DNA of 60,102 bases from Candidatus Lloydbacteria bacterium RIFCSPLOWO2_01_FULL_50_20 (lineage in GTDB: Bacteria; Patescibacteriota; Minisyncoccia; Phycocordibacterales; UBA6899): NCBI GenBank assembly GCA_001821435.1, contig MHLP01000037.1, forward strand, positions 1 to 60,102. Reading direction: 5' to 3'. The stretch's first letter is position 1, and every line of letters starts with the position of its first letter. Below, piece by piece: positions 2,837 through 53,191 of this stretch. The translations under genes were made by a program, and so were the position numbers. A model generated the notes under the pieces. It made no database searches. It saw nothing but the letters and a program-made list of their open reading frames with translations, and had not been told where the DNA came from.

Positions 2837-3256
2837 TTAGGAACTCTTTTTCCGCATAGTGTAGAATCTATAAGCAATGAGCACAATGCTTATCACGACA
2901 AAAAGGAGTGAGACGAGAAACGCAATGCGGCCCTTATCGGTCGGGAACAACCAATCACCGCTATAATCTGGCGCAAGAAAAATAAGAAGCATGGAGAGCG
3001 GTATCCACCACCGTGCAAAACGAAACCATGCACGATATATCTCGTCCTGCATCCAATAGGTAATGAGGGAGAAAAGAAAAAGTGGGAGGGTCGGGAGAAA
3101 GACAATCAAAACATCATAGAGAGTATCCATGCATCTTCCGTATTCAACGCTACCACATAAACGAAATGTCCCAATTTGATCTAGAATAAATAAAACTACT
3201 GTCACAAACCCGGAAATCCATAGCACGTTTTTTTTTGTGACCAACTTTTCCATCAT
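2837..3256 (-). CDS. Small integral membrane protein (hypothetical)
   Basis: Start trimmed to MMEKLVTKK (ATG at 3256). The longer track ORF would overlap the upstream gene's end. About 4 hydrophobic helices. Confidence 0.55.
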   Translation of the reverse strand: MMEKLVTKKNVLWISGFVTVVLFILDQIGTFRLCGSVEYGRCMDTLYDVLIVFLPTLPLFLFSLITYWMQDEIYRAWFRFARWWIPLSMLLIFLAPDYSGDWLFPTDKGRIAFLVSLLFVVISIVLIAYRFYTMRKKSS

Positions 3257-3284: not shown

Positions 3285-6200
3285 CTACCGCACCCACACC
3301 ACCACTGAATAAGTTGCCCCGTCATCCAGCTTCGCGGAAATACGATACCAATACCCCGCAAGCAGTCCCTTTGTGCTCCAATCATAGATATATTGCTGGT
3401 CAGCGGTGTCCCAGCGATATGTGGTACCGTTTGTCGAAGTGTTTATTGAGGCAACTTCGTTTGTGCTGGCGTTCATGGGAGACACTTGTTCGGGTGGCAG
3501 CCAGAGTGGCACCGCAGAGGCCTGTACTAAATTTCCACCCGCATCCTTGAGTTGAAACCTTACTGGTATTGTACTTCCGCCCTTGAAAACTGAAGATGTC
3601 AGCCCCGGCCACACGCTCGTATCATTGATTGGCTGAAGGAAGCCAGAGAAGAGGTAGCTGGGAGGTCGAGGAATAGTGACGGTGTCATTGAGTTTTGGTG
3701 CAAGGGTGATATCTGTTGTGCCATCACCGTCTTCGTCAATGAACATTGAGGAAATAGTGGCAATGTCGGATGTGATATTAAGTACCACGCTTGTTGTCGG
3801 CATTGTTGGTACGTCTTTCCATGTTGTACTTGCAATGAGCGTGTCTCCCGCGAGCTCTTGGGCACTAAAGGTGAATGTTCCAGTCGCGTAACCGTTCATA
3901 ATAATTTTGCCAACGAGATTGGTGTCAGTGAAGAGATATTTTGCATCACCGACTTCAGTATAGTATGTGCCGGGAATCTGCTCCTCGACTTGCCCTGTCG
4001 TTGTCGAGACGCCCGTGTGGCGACCTTTCTCGTCATAGAGATCGAGGGTGAGCGGAGAGTGGAGTGAATATACCAAGCGCATGTCTGTGCTGGTCGGCGT
4101 TTCGACGGAGAGGTATGAATATTCGGAAAGCGGTTTTTTGATGTTTGTAAGGAGATCGGAAATAAAGTTATTTAGTCCGTCGACCTCGAGAATCCTTGAA
4201 TGATCAAAAGAAAAAAATCCTCCGAGAGTATTCACAAAATGATCTCGATTATAAGCTCTCAAGTTCACCCAATAATTTATCGCCCCAGTGGACGTACTCG
4301 TCCAGAGCGCACTGGGGATGAGTACTGTCCCATCGCCATCAATTGTGAAATTCATCCCCGTTTCAAATGAGGTGCTCGGGGGTAGGCATCCGGCACCAGG
4401 GAGACAGAATTGGCTGGTTTTTTGCGTGTAATTAATTCCACTAACTGTCTTAGGCACCCCCCAGCCGGCAATTTGGATCAGCTTGACACCCGGAGGAGGT
4501 GCCCAGCTATCAAGGTTGGTGTGAAGCACTTCGGCATCGGAAAACAGCCCATCGTTTAATTGGATCGGCCTTGCGATATCTGTGCTTTGTGAATCTGCGC
4601 GCCCATAGCTATCAGTGAGAAAGGCGCGAAGCGTGATTTCCGAATTAATGTTCTCACCATAGCGTGTCGCCCAGTCAGAAAGAGTCGCTGGATCAAACGT
4701 GACAACTGGAGTGCGTACATCATTAAAATATCCCGCAGACGGCAGAAGGTGATAGAGCATGGGCGACGTACTCGCAAAAGTACGTGCAACTGAATTTAAG
4801 GTGATAAGTCCAAAGAGGTGATCTTGATCGTAGCCATGGAGTGAAGCTGCAATTGCTGCAGGTGTTCCTACTTGTGGTACTGCAACAAAGATCATTTTGT
4901 CGATTAATTTCGGTGCATCGGCCCCGAGAAGCTGAGTGAGTTTCTTTGCTACTAATCCGCCGTTCGAATGCGCGACGATTGTCACCCTCCCTGTTTTTGA
5001 TGTTGCTGCAAGGCGGCGAAGTTCCTGAATAATATATGGCGACGATGTTGCCTTATTATATGAAATATTGCCATTTTCTTTTTTTCCGCTCGAAAGAATA
5101 TCAGACAATGAGAGCCGCCAGTCATACGGCACAGCTTCCCAGTCATTAATGATATGCTCTGATTTCAGGTTATCCATTCTCGTACTAAAGGACTTATAGA
5201 TATTTGATCCCGTCACGTTTATCTCACCGATCACATCACGGGTGTAAATATCGAACGCCGCCGTACTTTTTCCGTTTGCATCGAGATATAACTTGCGCAC
5301 GTCGTCGTTTCGGTTGGGTTCCCAGAGTTGGTTCTCGCAGTTAATGAACCAACAGTTGGGATCGTCATATGCATACAACCTCGATGCTTCGATGCCCGGC
5401 AAAAACAGTACATTGGAGACGCAGAGGTCGGGGCCTTCCGTTGCGAGGGGGTTACAGCTGGTAAAGTTGCCGAAGTCCACATTATCCGAAACGCGGTCAC
5501 CGGTGCCTCCCGGGTTCGAGGGATGTGTCGGGCCGGATGGATCGCCCCAATAATTGTCCGTTGCGTCGATAGAAATTGCTGAACCATTGTAGAGGCCGTA
5601 TGAGGGATTATCGTGAATGCCCGAGCGATGAATAGCGAATGTTCCATTGCTGATCCATATGCCGTAGAGAGTGCTTGACGCGATCTCGGAATCAACGACC
5701 GTTGCTCTACCTCCGAGCTGGAGCAGGCCAAAGTTGCCGCTGCGCGCGAGCTCTACACGATCGAGTGTGAGCGTGCCGCCGTTATTCTTGATCGCTGAGA
5801 GCCAGTCATATCCGCCGTAGAGGATACGCGCATTCTCGATGCGACCGGTCGAGCCTGGATTGAAGACGATGCTCCTCCATTCGCCGGCATGGGGAAGAGT
5901 TGCATCACCGTCGCCGTTGGTATCTCCGCCTAACGAATCATCGGTGATAGAAGTTATGACGACCTCGTCGGTGGAAGTACTTGAGCCGACATTTAATATT
6001 CCATCAACGGGAATGATCACGTCCGGACGCATCTTTATGATCGCACCGGGAAGTATATTCAATGTAAAACCGTAAGGCACGGTGAGGTATCGGGGAACAT
6101 AGGGAAGGCCATCACCGGGAAGAACGAGATCCTCTTCAAGTGAGAGTCCGAGGGAGATCGCTCCTTCTCCGGTATTTCCGCCATGACTCATAAAGTGTAT

Positions 6201-41105: not shown

Positions 41106-41915
41106 ATGCAGACTGCCGGCGCAAAAAGGATCCTCATCGTTTCAAATGACGAGGCGCTCACCAAAGCGCTCCCCGAATTTCTCACTCAATCCGGATATGA
41201 GCCGTTCACTACCTCGGAAATTATAACGGCGAGTACGGAATTTGAACGACTGCACCCTCATTTGGTGATCCTCGATCTCGGAAAAGAGACCCAGCATGCA
41301 ATGCATTTCCTTGAAACCATCCGCGCCAACCCCAACCGCCACATGGCTCAAATACCCGTATTGATCGGATCGGAGAATGGGAATCTCTTAGATATCAGCT
41401 GCGCTCTCAAACTTGGAGCGAAGGAATATTTTATTAAAAGATCTTCCCTGCCTGCGGATATATTGAAAAAAGCAGAGAAGTGCTTCGGAGACGCGAATGG
41501 CATGACTAATGTTCTTTCTGCAAAAGTACTTATGGTGGAAGATGACAAATTCCTCCGTGAGCTTGCCATACAGAAATTCACCAAAGAGGGGATGAAGACC
41601 ATTGCTGCGATGGACGGCGAACAGGCGGTTATGCTGGCCGAAAAAGAGCTTCCCGATATCATTCTCCTCGATATTTTGCTTCCCGGTATCGATGGTTTTG
41701 AAGCACTGAAGCGCATACGCGCGAATGCTGCGCTTCTCAAAACTCCCGTATTTATGCTTTCAAATTTCGGGCAAGCGGAAGATATCGCAAGGGCGAAAGA
41801 ACTTGGCGTGGATCAATTTCTAGTAAAGGCAAATTACACGCTGGATGAGATCGTCGTTATGGTGCGCGAAAGTCTGGCAAAGGTGAAAGCGTCTCCTCAG
41901 CGCCTATCCTCATAA
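41106..41915 (+). CDS. Response regulator with two receiver domains and no output domain
   Basis: REC1: RILIVSNDEA...LVILDL. REC2: KVLMVEDDKF...IILLDILLPGIDG...FMLSN...K. Confidence 0.8.
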   Translation: MQTAGAKRILIVSNDEALTKALPEFLTQSGYEPFTTSEIITASTEFERLHPHLVILDLGKETQHAMHFLETIRANPNRHMAQIPVLIGSENGNLLDISCALKLGAKEYFIKRSSLPADILKKAEKCFGDANGMTNVLSAKVLMVEDDKFLRELAIQKFTKEGMKTIAAMDGEQAVMLAEKELPDIILLDILLPGIDGFEALKRIRANAALLKTPVFMLSNFGQAEDIARAKELGVDQFLVKANYTLDEIVVMVRESLAKVKASPQRLSS

Positions 41916-41965
41916 TCACCGGAACATGAAAATAGCCAATACTCCTTTGACAAATCACCTGCAAG

Positions 41966-49828: not shown

Positions 49829-50031
49829 CCGCCCAGCTCCTTATTGGAACAGCCCATTCATCCCCTTGGGCCTGACCTCGCCTGAACTCGGTCGAAGCCT
49901 TCTCTTGGGGATGAATGGGCGCGAATAGCACAGATGGGGCGGTGGCCCCATCCCTAACCAAAAAACTTGCCCGTGGTTCCGCCCGCCAAATACCCCTCAG
50001 CTCTGCTACGGGAAGTGGACGGGCGGACAAG
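49829..50031. other. GC-rich, highly structured non-coding segment (candidate ncRNA, class unknown)
   Basis: 14-bp perfect stem GCCCATTCATCCCC / GGGGATGAATGGGC (49852-49865 / 49907-49920), enclosed by CCGCCC / GGGCGG (49829-34 / 49937-42). A second ~66-nt hairpin at 49966-50031 is followed on the minus strand by T6 (49960-65). Confidence 0.35.
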
Positions 50032-50095
50032 TTTATCCTATGCAGATTCCTTGTTTTTCGGTATATTTTTGGTATATTATCTTGGTTCTCAAAGA

Positions 50096-50168
50096 GGGCC
50101 CATAGCTCAGTTGGTAGAGCGCTACATTTGCAATGTAGATGTCAGCGGTTCGAATCCGCTTGGGTCCA
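50096..50168 (+). tRNA. tRNA-Ala(UGC), 3' CCA not encoded at this end
   Basis: Cloverleaf by hand: acceptor gggccca/tgggtcc with G3:U70, anticodon arm ctaca-ttTGCaa-tgtag, T arm agcgg-ttcgaat-ccgct. Confidence 0.9.
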
Positions 50169-50340
50169 CAACGAGTCTGCGAGGTGGGGAACCGAGGAGT
50201 GAGCTGCTTCACTCCGGGGCGGATTCGAAAGGGTTTTCATTATCGAGCGACCAATTTTTCTTAGCGGTACTCCGCTTAGAAAAGTGGAAGTGCCCGTAGT
50301 GGTGTCTTCGAGATTGAAAACCACCCGTTGCGGTAGGCAA

Positions 50341-50361
50341 CGAATCCGCTTGGGTCCACCA
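50341..50361 (+). repeat. Second copy of the tRNA-Ala(UGC) 3' end (19-nt perfect direct repeat), here with encoded CCA
   Basis: cgaatccgcttgggtccac at 50151-50169 and again at 50341-50359. The second copy continues as CCA. Confidence 0.85.
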
Positions 50362-50412
50362 AGCGAAATATCGAGCTATATTATTCAGTAACAAGATCGA
50401 AAATGACTCAGC

Positions 50413-50916
50413 ATGAATAACATTCTTGTCAGTTCAAACGGTGTACTTTCTTTTGGCGGCAAAGCATACCGTTGTGCGTTGGGGAAAGGCGGAGTGCGGT
50501 CTGATAAAGCAGAGGGGGATGGAGCAACGCCCGTCGGGTGTTTTCCCATACGCAAAGTTTTCTATCGACCTGACCGATCTGCACATGCTCCGTTGACTGT
50601 CTTTCCCACACAGGCCCTTCTCCAAGATGATGGCTGGAGCGATGACGTTCATTTGCCGGAATATAATACGTTCGTGAAGCTTCCCTACGGGGGTTCGCAT
50701 GAAAAACTGTGGCGAGACGACCACTTATATGACCTCATTGTGACGCTCGGCTACAATGACGATCCTCCTATTGCAGGCAAGGGCAGCGCGATATTTATGC
50801 ACATTGCACGAGAGGGCTACACTCCGACCGCGGGTTGCATCGCGCTTTTTCAGGAAGATCTTCTGGAAATACTCAAGACTGCCACAACTGAAACACGGGT
50901 GTGCATAGAGGAATAG
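50413..50916 (+). CDS. L,D-transpeptidase (YkuD) family protein
   Basis: GSAIFMHIA...TAGCIAL His/Cys catalytic motif. Confidence 0.75.
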   Translation: MNNILVSSNGVLSFGGKAYRCALGKGGVRSDKAEGDGATPVGCFPIRKVFYRPDRSAHAPLTVFPTQALLQDDGWSDDVHLPEYNTFVKLPYGGSHEKLWRDDHLYDLIVTLGYNDDPPIAGKGSAIFMHIAREGYTPTAGCIALFQEDLLEILKTATTETRVCIEE

Positions 50917-50997
50917 CATCTTTTTGCTTCACGGCGCAGGATGTTTTGTTGTAGAATAAAGGTGTGGTAATAAGGAATTATCAATTTATTTTTTCCT

Positions 50998-51507
50998 ATG
51001 GCATCACCAAAACAAAGAAGTGCGGCGAAGAAGAATATCCGCAAGGCGCAGCAAAAGTGGAGAAGCATGACAAAGCGCGAGCATAGCTTGGCGCAACCCG
51101 AGGGAAGAAGACGAAAACTTCCGGGGACAACAGGGAAAGGCAAGTTTTATCGTATTGAAGTGCGGCCAAAAGGAGAGTTTGCCACCTTTAGAAATCAGGA
51201 TCTCGGCAAAAGCGGCGGACTGGAACGTCTGGCAGGGAAGAGAAGGAGCGGAAGCTGGGATACGGTGTCGTTTCTCGTCAGCAAAAAAGGGGCACATGTG
51301 GATAAACACGGACACTTAAAGATCGATGATCCGAAAATGCGGACGGCACTGAAGCAGATCCGAGGAAGGGTCACGCACGTGAAAGGAGACGTCTTTCGCG
51401 CACATCCACGGAGAAATATTCCTGAAAATGAGAAGCCCACTCTTGCGCAGCGACGTGCACAAAGGAAAAACATCAAAAAAGCCCAGCGGGCGCGCTGGAA
51501 GAAATAG
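50998..51507 (+). CDS. Highly basic hypothetical protein
   Basis: 169 aa. KKNIRKAQQKW near the N-terminus is echoed by RKNIKKAQRARW at the C-terminus. Confidence 0.55.
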   Translation: MASPKQRSAAKKNIRKAQQKWRSMTKREHSLAQPEGRRRKLPGTTGKGKFYRIEVRPKGEFATFRNQDLGKSGGLERLAGKRRSGSWDTVSFLVSKKGAHVDKHGHLKIDDPKMRTALKQIRGRVTHVKGDVFRAHPRRNIPENEKPTLAQRRAQRKNIKKAQRARWKK

Positions 51508-52691: not shown

Positions 52692-52913
52692 AACGATTAT
52701 AATTAAATAGTTATAAATTATTAATGTAGTGGACAAGCTAAGGGTTAAATAAATATACAGCTTCGATTAGTGGCGGAAACATATTATCATACACCGTCAC
52801 TATGAAATTTCTCTGAAGCGGAATATTTCTTTGCATATTGGCATATTTTTGCTATATTTCTTGAGTTCTTGAGGAGGGCCCGTAGCTCATCTGGTAGAGC
52901 GCGTCATTTTCAC

Positions 52914-53020
52914 CCTGTTAGACATAGGCCATGCGGGCCTATCGTATAGTGGTAGTACACGGCATTCGCATTGCCGGGACGCCAGTTCGATTCTGGCTAG
53001 GTCCACCAATGTCTAACAGG
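52914..53020. repeat. 107-nt insert bounded by a perfect 12-bp inverted repeat
   Basis: CCTGTTAGACAT (52914-52925) is the reverse complement of ATGTCTAACAGG (53009-53020). Confidence 0.85.
52935..53008 (+). tRNA. tRNA-Ala(CGC) with encoded CCA, nested inside the interrupted tRNA
   Basis: Acceptor gggccta/taggtcc with G3:U70, D arm gtat-agtggta-gtac, anticodon arm cggca-ttCGCat-tgccg, T arm gccag-ttcgatt-ctggc, then ACCA. Confidence 0.85.
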
Positions 53021-53075
53021 GCGGGTTGACGAGGCAAGCGGTTCGAGTCCGCTTGGGTCCACAAAAGACACAAAC

Positions 53076-53096
53076 ATCCCGCCTGCGCGGGATTTT
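53076..53096 (+). terminator. Terminator after the tRNA pair
   Basis: atcccgc-ctgc-gcgggat plus tttt. Confidence 0.65.
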
Positions 53097-53191
53097 GTGC
53101 TTTTGGGGAGGCCGCAGCGATATTTCGCCAGCAGGCGAAATCGCGAGGCGGGGTCGCGAGCACTTATGTTTTTTAGTTAGGCTTTGCGCTA

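Follow-up and report, generated by a model that had tools for sequence, protein, structure and literature searches.

A direct repeat that begins in the T-loop of a tRNA gene and stretches to its 3′ end is typical of tRNA-integrating elements. Work by Williams from 2002 is said to describe genomic islands and prophages that enter tRNA genes by means of tyrosine integrases, with a sublocation at the T-loop. Recombination can also use folded single-stranded sites. This is the case of the integron attC sites and of the attP(+) hairpin of phage CTX, the latter being used by XerCD. MITEs, REPINs and PATEs are hairpin elements that are not autonomous and depend for their movement on IS transposases or on Y1 enzymes of the RAYT type. 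Finally, the RtT repeats behind the E. coli tyrT gene (RF00391) are 178-bp units, each of which includes a copy of the 3′ end of tRNA-Tyr.

The locus described here lies within a window (the whole stretch of DNA analysed, 60,102 nt) from a genome of ~0.99 Mb, assembled in 44 contigs, with tmRNA present. Behind an intact tRNA-Ala(UGC) gene, positions 50170–50340 and one copy of the tRNA tail together constitute an inserted, protein-less module that belongs to a large family. The module acts like a tRNA-integrating element, yet it lacks the properties that define islands, MITEs, attC cassettes and REPINs. We know of no element in which a gene-restoring tRNA-tail insertion is combined with a conserved hairpin core whose sense and antisense arms match the target, and our literature searches found no published description of such a tRNA-tail module.

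The tRNA-Ala(UGC) gene and its repeated tail

The tRNA-Ala(UGC) gene (50096–50168, forward strand, as are all features of this locus given below) is intact and has no encoded CCA; it is recognized by Rfam (RF00005, 73.8 bits) and by ARAGORN, whose call for tRNA-Ala(tgc) covers 50096–50169. A sequence-only reading of the window had proposed that the tail of this gene is repeated exactly downstream, which ARAGORN, Rfam and an exact-match search bear out. The repeated 19-mer extends from C56 of the T-loop (50151) to the base after the discriminator (50169) within the working tRNA, and its exact second copy lies at 50341–50359, where shuffles allowing up to 3 mismatches give a chance expectation of 0.03 matches. 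A third copy with 1 mismatch, at 53044–53062, is part of an interrupted tRNA-Ala(CGC) gene described below. The same reading was right that only the distal copy encodes CCA: the latter (50341–50361) has its discriminator at A50358 and runs into CCA at 50359–50361, whereas the proximal copy (50151–50169) continues A-A-C, so that no CCA is encoded there. About half of the tRNA genes of the source genome lack an encoded CCA and a gene of the CCA-adding enzyme family is present; the proximal copy is thus able to yield a working tRNA. As an argument for integration, however, the CCA difference is true but weak. In other modules the trailer usually starts alike after both tail copies, and related genes differ, CCA being encoded in the syntenic, module-bearing tRNA-Ala(UGC) gene of G006 and not in the 95% identical gene of G021, which has no module and another neighbourhood.

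A local duplication created during assembly, which had been raised as a possible source of the repeat, is ruled out: both junctions are 99.95–100% identical in independent assemblies of other samples (ENA and Logan contigs L217, L219, L220 and L221), and Logan contigs spanning 50131–50291 and 50254–51300 bridge the insert. In Logan contigs from four groundwater and soil DNA runs, no joint that skips the module was seen at the tRNA-Ala(UGC) locus, nor were excision or empty-site reads seen there, and a metagenome pattern scan for the distal junction gave 0 matches. When the locus was looked up through the YkuD protein encoded downstream (20 contigs read), the module was carried, or the contig began inside it, at 10 of the 10 places listed. 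Logan contigs do include a 57-nt skip at 50246/50304; its sides are only 20–26 nt long with 85% likeness, so these contigs probably represent other modules that lack the nested element described below.

Two features of the upstream flank may be recorded here. An ENA scaffold from another sample (L218) is 99.97% identical to the window from the first tRNA base (50096) onward, while its upstream region is a different one, in which the Ddl gene is diverged and a SWIB gene is missing. The breakpoint, which coincides with the start of the tRNA, arose either by recombination or in the assembly. In addition, a GC-rich repeat (~130–170 nt, window 49868–50036) lies upstream of the tRNA, with copies of 85–96% identity in contigs C26, C6 and C4 of the same genome and many copies in G021.

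Anatomy of the module

The 171-nt insert is a composite of the module and a nested 57-nt element (50248–50304). Across the family the order is constant: tail copy R; spacer S; bases antisense to the first trailer bases and to the acceptor 3′ strand; AG; hairpin B with a CTGC loop; CG; bases antisense to the T-stem 3′ strand and the T-loop; AAGG; hairpin D; CACCYG; hairpin E; and a closing tail copy R, which begins at T-loop position 56/57. At tRNA-Ala(UGC), the spacer (50170–50184) is the apical loop of the tail/anti-tail fold-back and contains a CGAG-N4-CGAG motif resembling the D loop; this motif is common to short-spacer modules, the type to which the present copy belongs. In about two thirds of modules (a count by eye) the spacer is instead a terminator-like palindrome, made of an A-tract, a GC hairpin and a T-tract, which stands between the tRNA and the core, whereas the tRNA-Ala(UGC) copy has no terminator there.

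The antisense acceptor 3′ strand (R′a, 50184–50196), located by alignment to homologous modules, is degenerate here; in those modules it is perfectly complementary to the acceptor 3′ strand and the first trailer bases. Hairpin B (50196–50215), defined by covariation and a DNA fold, has a 7-bp stem and a loop with the conserved CTGC. It is followed by the antisense T-loop and T-stem 3′ strand (R′t, 50219–50229), an 11-nt perfect complement of 50149–50159; in relatives this segment changes together with the tRNA, A/G in the T-loop being matched by T/C in the antisense copy. Since hairpin B emerges precisely where acceptor and T-stem meet in the antisense copy, the paired tail and anti-tail form a tRNA-like coaxial helix with a side arm. 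The hairpin that the earlier reading had seen at 50196–50215 and the tract containing the T-arm complement (50216–50233) are both present; its other hairpin, at 50263–50276, forms the tip of the nested element.

Hairpin D is split into a 5′ stem with the 5′ half of its conserved loop (50232–50247; covariation and alignment) and the 3′ half of the loop with the 3′ stem (50305–50322; alignment, covariation and DNA fold); throughout the family this loop has two conserved CGAG words. The nested element between these halves is absent from most modules and is counted outside the module proper. It occupies the identical point of the D loop, after GAG and before TC, in the source genome (G000) and in G015. 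Such hairpin elements measure 57–60 nt, start with CGACC, end with GGTGGTG, have a covarying stem tip and occur in many copies per genome in the genus; in the source genome, copies are found at C1:11432–11490, C7:44273–44329, C27:1660–1718 and C16:14638–14693. The module closes with the single-stranded junction CACCYG (50322–50327), near-invariant across alignment A2, and with hairpin E (50328–50340), defined by covariation, whose conserved loop is GGTAG here and GGTAG or AGTAAT in the family. The open reading frames that cross the 171 nt are mechanical, and a protein-coding gene is absent.

A large family behind many tRNA genes

Homologous inserts are present behind tRNA-Ala(CGC) in G012 and G009 and behind tRNA-Glu(UUC) in G015. 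A covariance model built from four copies (R1, accompanied by alignment A2) found full-length matches in 22 of the 22 genomes of the genus, with 4–45 per genome, and matches in 52 of the 121 genera of the order that were sampled (43%). The tRNA-Ala(UGC) insert carries hairpins B, D and E in order over the full length of the model and thereby belongs to the family; positions 50181–50371 score 215 bits, as a training sequence, and more than 30 independent copies align full length. The core is ~130 nt long, and modules lie directly 3′ of ~25 tRNA (anticodon) species. A same-strand tRNA was found upstream of 30 of 32 modules, 21 of those at a distance of at most 45 nt. In the source genome, modules follow tRNA-Ala(UGC), tRNA-Leu(CAG), tRNA-Val(CAC) and a tRNA-Trp, the last being absent from the intron-mode ARAGORN list, and there is one orphan copy as well.

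In Rfam, searched at the gathering score and at E ≤ 10, the only match was the tRNA itself, as regards the insert too; the next best E-values were 0.4–3 in a search that included RtT (RF00391), tmRNA, YrlA and ribozymes. Among 120 loose pattern matches in IMG/VR, the model recognized 0 modules, so that no free or phage-borne copy was found. These results bear on two of the interpretations offered by the sequence-only reading. A fully decayed island has to be rejected, as the insert represents a ~130-nt unit that is conserved, covaries and is found in dozens of copies per genome behind many tRNAs. A miniature non-autonomous integrative element came closest to what is found; that reading missed the antisense tail, the composite nature of the insert and the widespread family.

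Arms that match the adjacent tRNA

Each module has arms specific to the tRNA beside it, and modules behind ~25 tRNA species have the core in common. When compared with the tails of other tRNA species, the module's own tRNA ranked first for the distal copy in 24 of 30 modules and for the inverted (antisense) copy in 25 of 30. In the tRNA-Ala(UGC) module the direct copy ranked first and the inverted copy fourth; there, the match is exact over the 19 nt of the sense copy and over the 11 nt of the antisense T-arm copy, and the antisense acceptor copy is degenerate. At sites where the proximal and distal copies differ, the antisense copy agreed with the proximal copy at 2, with the distal copy at 1 and with neither at 3, these being 6 informative sites only.

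Over 37 copies, 94% of cells were paired and 31 of 34 pairs showed double changes, a level of pairing and covariation reached by 0 of 500 shuffles and not approached by slid registers. The three hairpins of the core are paired at 98.8% (hairpin B, helix 2; 7 of 7 pairs covary), 99.6% (hairpin D, helix 4; 8 of 8) and 95.7% (hairpin E, helix 5; 4 of 4). Taken together, they contain 638 Watson–Crick pairs out of 654, with 6 G·T (0.9% wobble) and 2 A·C, whereas the stems of neighbouring tRNAs have 34 G·U out of 510 (6.7% wobble; Fisher test, 9e-8, for copies that are not independent). In the arm helices, G·T and A·C are equally frequent (21 versus 21), and there is thus no strand bias. The near-pure Watson–Crick stems point to a constraint that acts on the DNA, or on both strands, and not on RNA only.

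Strong covariation could also mirror a host function. The module may be viewed as a host-beneficial structured RNA, co-transcribed with the tRNA precursor or processed from it, for instance as an acceptor/T minihelix decoy, as an element of 3′ processing or stability, or as a mask for the spare tail. Such an RNA would be consistent with the covariation, the conserved loops, a predicted fold z-score of −5.6 as RNA and a tRNA-like geometry in which hairpin B emerges from the acceptor/T junction; moreover, no terminator separates the tRNA from the module in the tRNA-Ala(UGC) copy. In the minimum-free-energy fold predicted for the co-transcript, the 5′ acceptor strand of the tRNA pairs with the distal tail. 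An RNA-level effect is conceivable at this terminator-less copy, since the distal tail could complete the tRNA in that fold. However, the stems are nearly free of wobble pairs, unlike the tRNA stems of the same loci, mismatches in the arms are strand-symmetric and a terminator-like hairpin precedes most modules. Presence at orthologous tRNAs is patchy, arrays are stacked and decaying, and the nested insertion in the D loop is tolerated. We therefore consider the host RNA, whichever of these roles it might have, to be fairly unlikely.

The same predicted fold might also favour an RNA intron located in the T-loop, with positions 50096–50150 joined in the mature tRNA to the distal tail, the copy on which CCA is encoded. 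This is hardly credible, because the uninterrupted gene is already a perfect tRNA, a terminator lies between the tRNA and most modules, distal copies are often truncated or decayed and no ribozyme family is matched.

Insertion and turnover

Evidence of insertion comes from a between-species comparison at another tRNA gene, tRNA-Glu(CUC), which is empty in the source genome and filled in G004 and G011. At the filled sites, the orthologous (native) trailer and terminator lie behind the distal copy, while a foreign trailer, with a terminator of its own, follows the proximal copy and forms a palindrome with the antisense acceptor copy. It follows from the foreign proximal and native distal trailers that the inserted block consists of one tail copy, the spacer and the module. 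Insertion thus separates the tRNA body from its native trailer by one whole block, the module, and leaves the gene intact. The native trailer behind the distal copy backs the claim of the earlier reading that the tail insertion restores the tRNA and displaces its original end. By analogy with the filled tRNA-Glu(CUC) loci, the proximal tail copy of tRNA-Ala(UGC) (50151–50169) was probably supplied by the insert, and the distal copy (50341–50361) probably represents the original tail after its displacement.

On its left side, the direct repeat always begins at T-loop position 56/57; on the right, it stops anywhere between the tRNA end (0) and +33 nt. Judged from the best alignments, its length ranges from 6 to at least 53 nt and is typically 14–39 nt. 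Units may accumulate: in G012, two identical units adjoin tRNA-Arg(UCG), with degenerate units farther off. Cores and arms do not travel strictly together. The tRNA-Val(CAC) and tRNA-Val(UAC) modules of G013 have cores that are ~93% identical and arms that differ, and near-identical D–E blocks are found behind tRNAs for Glu, Gly, Cys and Ser; arms are thus exchangeable relative to the core. More generally, cores combine a small set of B, D and E variants in mosaic fashion, and a core tree displayed weak grouping by amino acid (19 changes versus 21.6 on shuffling; 24 of 500) and none by genome. The distal tail of one module (L041) looked chimeric, for which a simple CT duplication is an equally good explanation.

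Alternatively, the arrangement might be an immobile direct–inverted–direct triplication of the tail, produced by template switching during replication at the T-arm and terminator palindromes, with hairpins that were inherited or came later. The junctions, which fall in the palindromic T-loop and on the apex of a hairpin, would be consistent with this, as would the direct repeats that include the whole trailer and terminator in some modules (53 nt in L026). Yet a single B/D/E core in fixed order behind ~25 unrelated tRNAs in 52 genera makes independent origin impossible, and at tRNA-Glu(CUC) the proximal trailer is foreign rather than a copy of the native one. Given the common ancestry of the core across tRNAs, template switching might act only as the step by which arms are rewritten, and even for that step we regard it as very unlikely.

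Search for a mobilizing enzyme

A mobilizing enzyme was not identified among the reverse transcriptase (RT), Y1/RAYT and serine recombinase candidates. RT was absent from the three module-rich genomes G000, G013 and G002. RAYT-like and IS200-like Y1 genes are frequent in the genus, with 2–6 RAYT-like matches per genome. Over 121 genomes, however, Y1 transposases were not associated with modules, being present in 33 of 52 module-positive and 40 of 69 module-negative genomes, and the palindromes that flank RAYT genes are unrelated to the module. The figures for serine recombinases (33 of 52 and 40 of 69) likewise reveal no association, and G029 has four strong modules and neither Y1 transposase nor serine recombinase. 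The only recombinase present in all five genomes of the genus that were searched is an Xer-like tyrosine recombinase, with one Phage_integrase match in each; in the source genome its gene lies at C19:8488–9006.

As regards the Y1 genes themselves, the source genome has five to six of the IS200/RAYT-like type in 1 Mb (C4:33908–34129, C40:15919–16095, C7:50255–50596, C23:19315–19656 and C43:7668–8030), two of which are flanked by perfect palindromes of their own, 22–42 nt long. Two serine-recombinase contigs may also be described: the large gene at 2173–3879 of L232 (G071) ends inside an oppositely oriented tRNA-Ser (3693–3782), and that at 1384–3156 of L234 (G123) ends inside an oppositely oriented tRNA-Asp (3117–3191).

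The distribution of these enzymes also bears on whether the module is the remnant of something larger, that is, the fused attL/attR ends, CIME-like, of an island or plasmid that encoded an integrase. The T-loop-to-3′-end direct repeat is as expected of a tRNA-integrating element, and large serine recombinase genes do abut tRNA genes in these genomes. However, the full-length island with an integrase that the earlier reading had envisaged at this tRNA found no counterpart among several hundred model matches, the longest of which is ~230 nt. The serine recombinases are not associated with modules, those near modules overlap other tRNAs on the opposite strand, and the five genomes have a single Xer-like tyrosine recombinase each. 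Furthermore, the core is conserved and covarying, contrary to what decay would produce. An origin as fused ends is, in our opinion, distinctly unlikely.

Comparison with known elements and possible mechanism

Among the known systems, the module resembles tRNA islands and prophages in its repeat, which starts in the T-loop and reaches the 3′ end or passes it, in the restoration of the tRNA by the insert, in the displacement of the original tail and in its tandem arrays; at tRNA-Ala(UGC), the direct repeat of the 3′ part of the tRNA is att-like and exact over 19 nt. In contrast to islands, nothing of an integrase gene, of cargo or of their remnants lies between the repeats, where the 171 nt are noncoding. 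The module measures 130–190 nt rather than kilobases, has an additional antisense tail split by a hairpin, and displays the same three-hairpin core across ~25 tRNA targets and in many copies per 1-Mb genome.

The likeness to attC sites and to the CTX attP(+) hairpin lies in structure being kept over sequence, in imperfect palindromes with a stem that imitates the duplex target, in the succession of inverted copy, spacer and direct copy beside the host flank, in arrays and in near-pure Watson–Crick stems. On the other hand, the Phage_integrase search of five genomes, with its one Xer-like match each, found no IntI, the GTTRRRY core was not seen by eye in the module consensus, the stem of the module is a tRNA tail that differs from target to target, and no single-stranded or circular form was observed. 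Like MITEs, REPINs and PATEs, the module is small, non-coding, multicopy and hairpin-rich, and is presumably moved in trans. Unlike MITEs, it has neither element-specific terminal inverted repeats nor a short fixed target duplication, its inverted segments being copies of the target tRNA tail that differ by locus. A relationship to REPIN/RAYT systems or to PATEs derived from IS200/IS605 is not indicated either, given the Y1 distribution over the 121 genomes and the unrelated RAYT flanks. RtT repeats resemble the module in that units which include the 3′ end of the tRNA stand in tandem behind its gene, but they belong to one enterobacterial locus, have no antisense copy and no core common to other tRNAs, and gave no Rfam match here.

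Overall, we favour as the probable explanation, while leaving appreciable room for error, a family of tRNA-tail modules that insert as blocks, are selfish elements acting at the DNA level rather than host RNA genes, and integrate in a hairpin form. According to this explanation, the insert would bring a new proximal tail, in many cases together with a terminator, and push the old tail, here with CCA, downstream. The most likely route would be a folded single strand or hairpin whose tail/anti-tail stem mimics the duplex tRNA tail; its crossover with the gene, of the CTX/attC kind, would take place in the T-loop, where the repeat has its fixed left edge. The recombination enzyme would be supplied in trans, the Xer-like tyrosine recombinase being a candidate. 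Hairpin-templated (quasi-palindrome) copying might keep the arms perfectly complementary and might occasionally rewrite them to a new tRNA, although the replacement of both arms is conjecture. It is tempting to go further and to speculate, tentatively and as a possibility rather than an expectation, that these modules represent a new class of mobile DNA. This would be a protein-less hairpin cassette whose rewritable sense and antisense copies of the target tail serve as a self-templated DNA ‘guide’, which is inserted at the T-loop by housekeeping machinery (an Xer-type recombinase or replication template switching) and which has spread Patescibacteria-wide.

The ~1-Mb genomes of Patescibacteria are under strong reduction, and yet at least a quarter of their tRNA genes carry modules. 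If the arms are truly rewritable, the module would be a natural, programmable device for DNA insertion with protein-independent specificity, and would offer a tractable route to the survival of mobile DNA in minimal genomes. On a practical level, modules break assemblies at tRNA loci and create spurious ‘att’ footprints, and tRNA and island predictors may be confused by them.

Other tRNA-linked elements nearby

Several further elements are linked to tRNA genes in this genome. Intron-mode ARAGORN reported a tRNA-Met with a 717-nt insert in the window (41139–41952, minus strand) and a tRNA-Thr with a 239-nt insert elsewhere in the genome (C10:7136–7447); Rfam intron families gave no match in the window. 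At 52876–53063 of the window, a complete tRNA-Ala(CGC)-CCA gene, flanked by 13-bp inverted repeats, interrupts another tRNA gene within its anticodon loop, and the gene thus interrupted is the ortholog of an intact tRNA-Ala(CGC) in G012, G009 and G021. A second family of trailing elements consists of a conserved block of ~70 nt that starts with GAAAGGAAAAGTCAAAG and is found behind five CCA-ending tRNA genes of the source genome, namely tRNA-Tyr (C15), tRNA-Arg(UCG) (C19), tRNA-Leu(UAA) (C7), tRNA-Leu(GAG) (C39) and tRNA-Leu(CAA) (C27). Finally, a terminator cassette made of AAAGACACAAAC, a CTGC-loop hairpin and a T-run occupies 53063–53105 of the window and is also present downstream of tRNA-Glu(CUC) on contig C5 of the same genome, as well as in L036 and L020. 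This cassette is found after various tRNAs and, in several modules, after the distal copy, and its stem displays compensatory changes between genomes.
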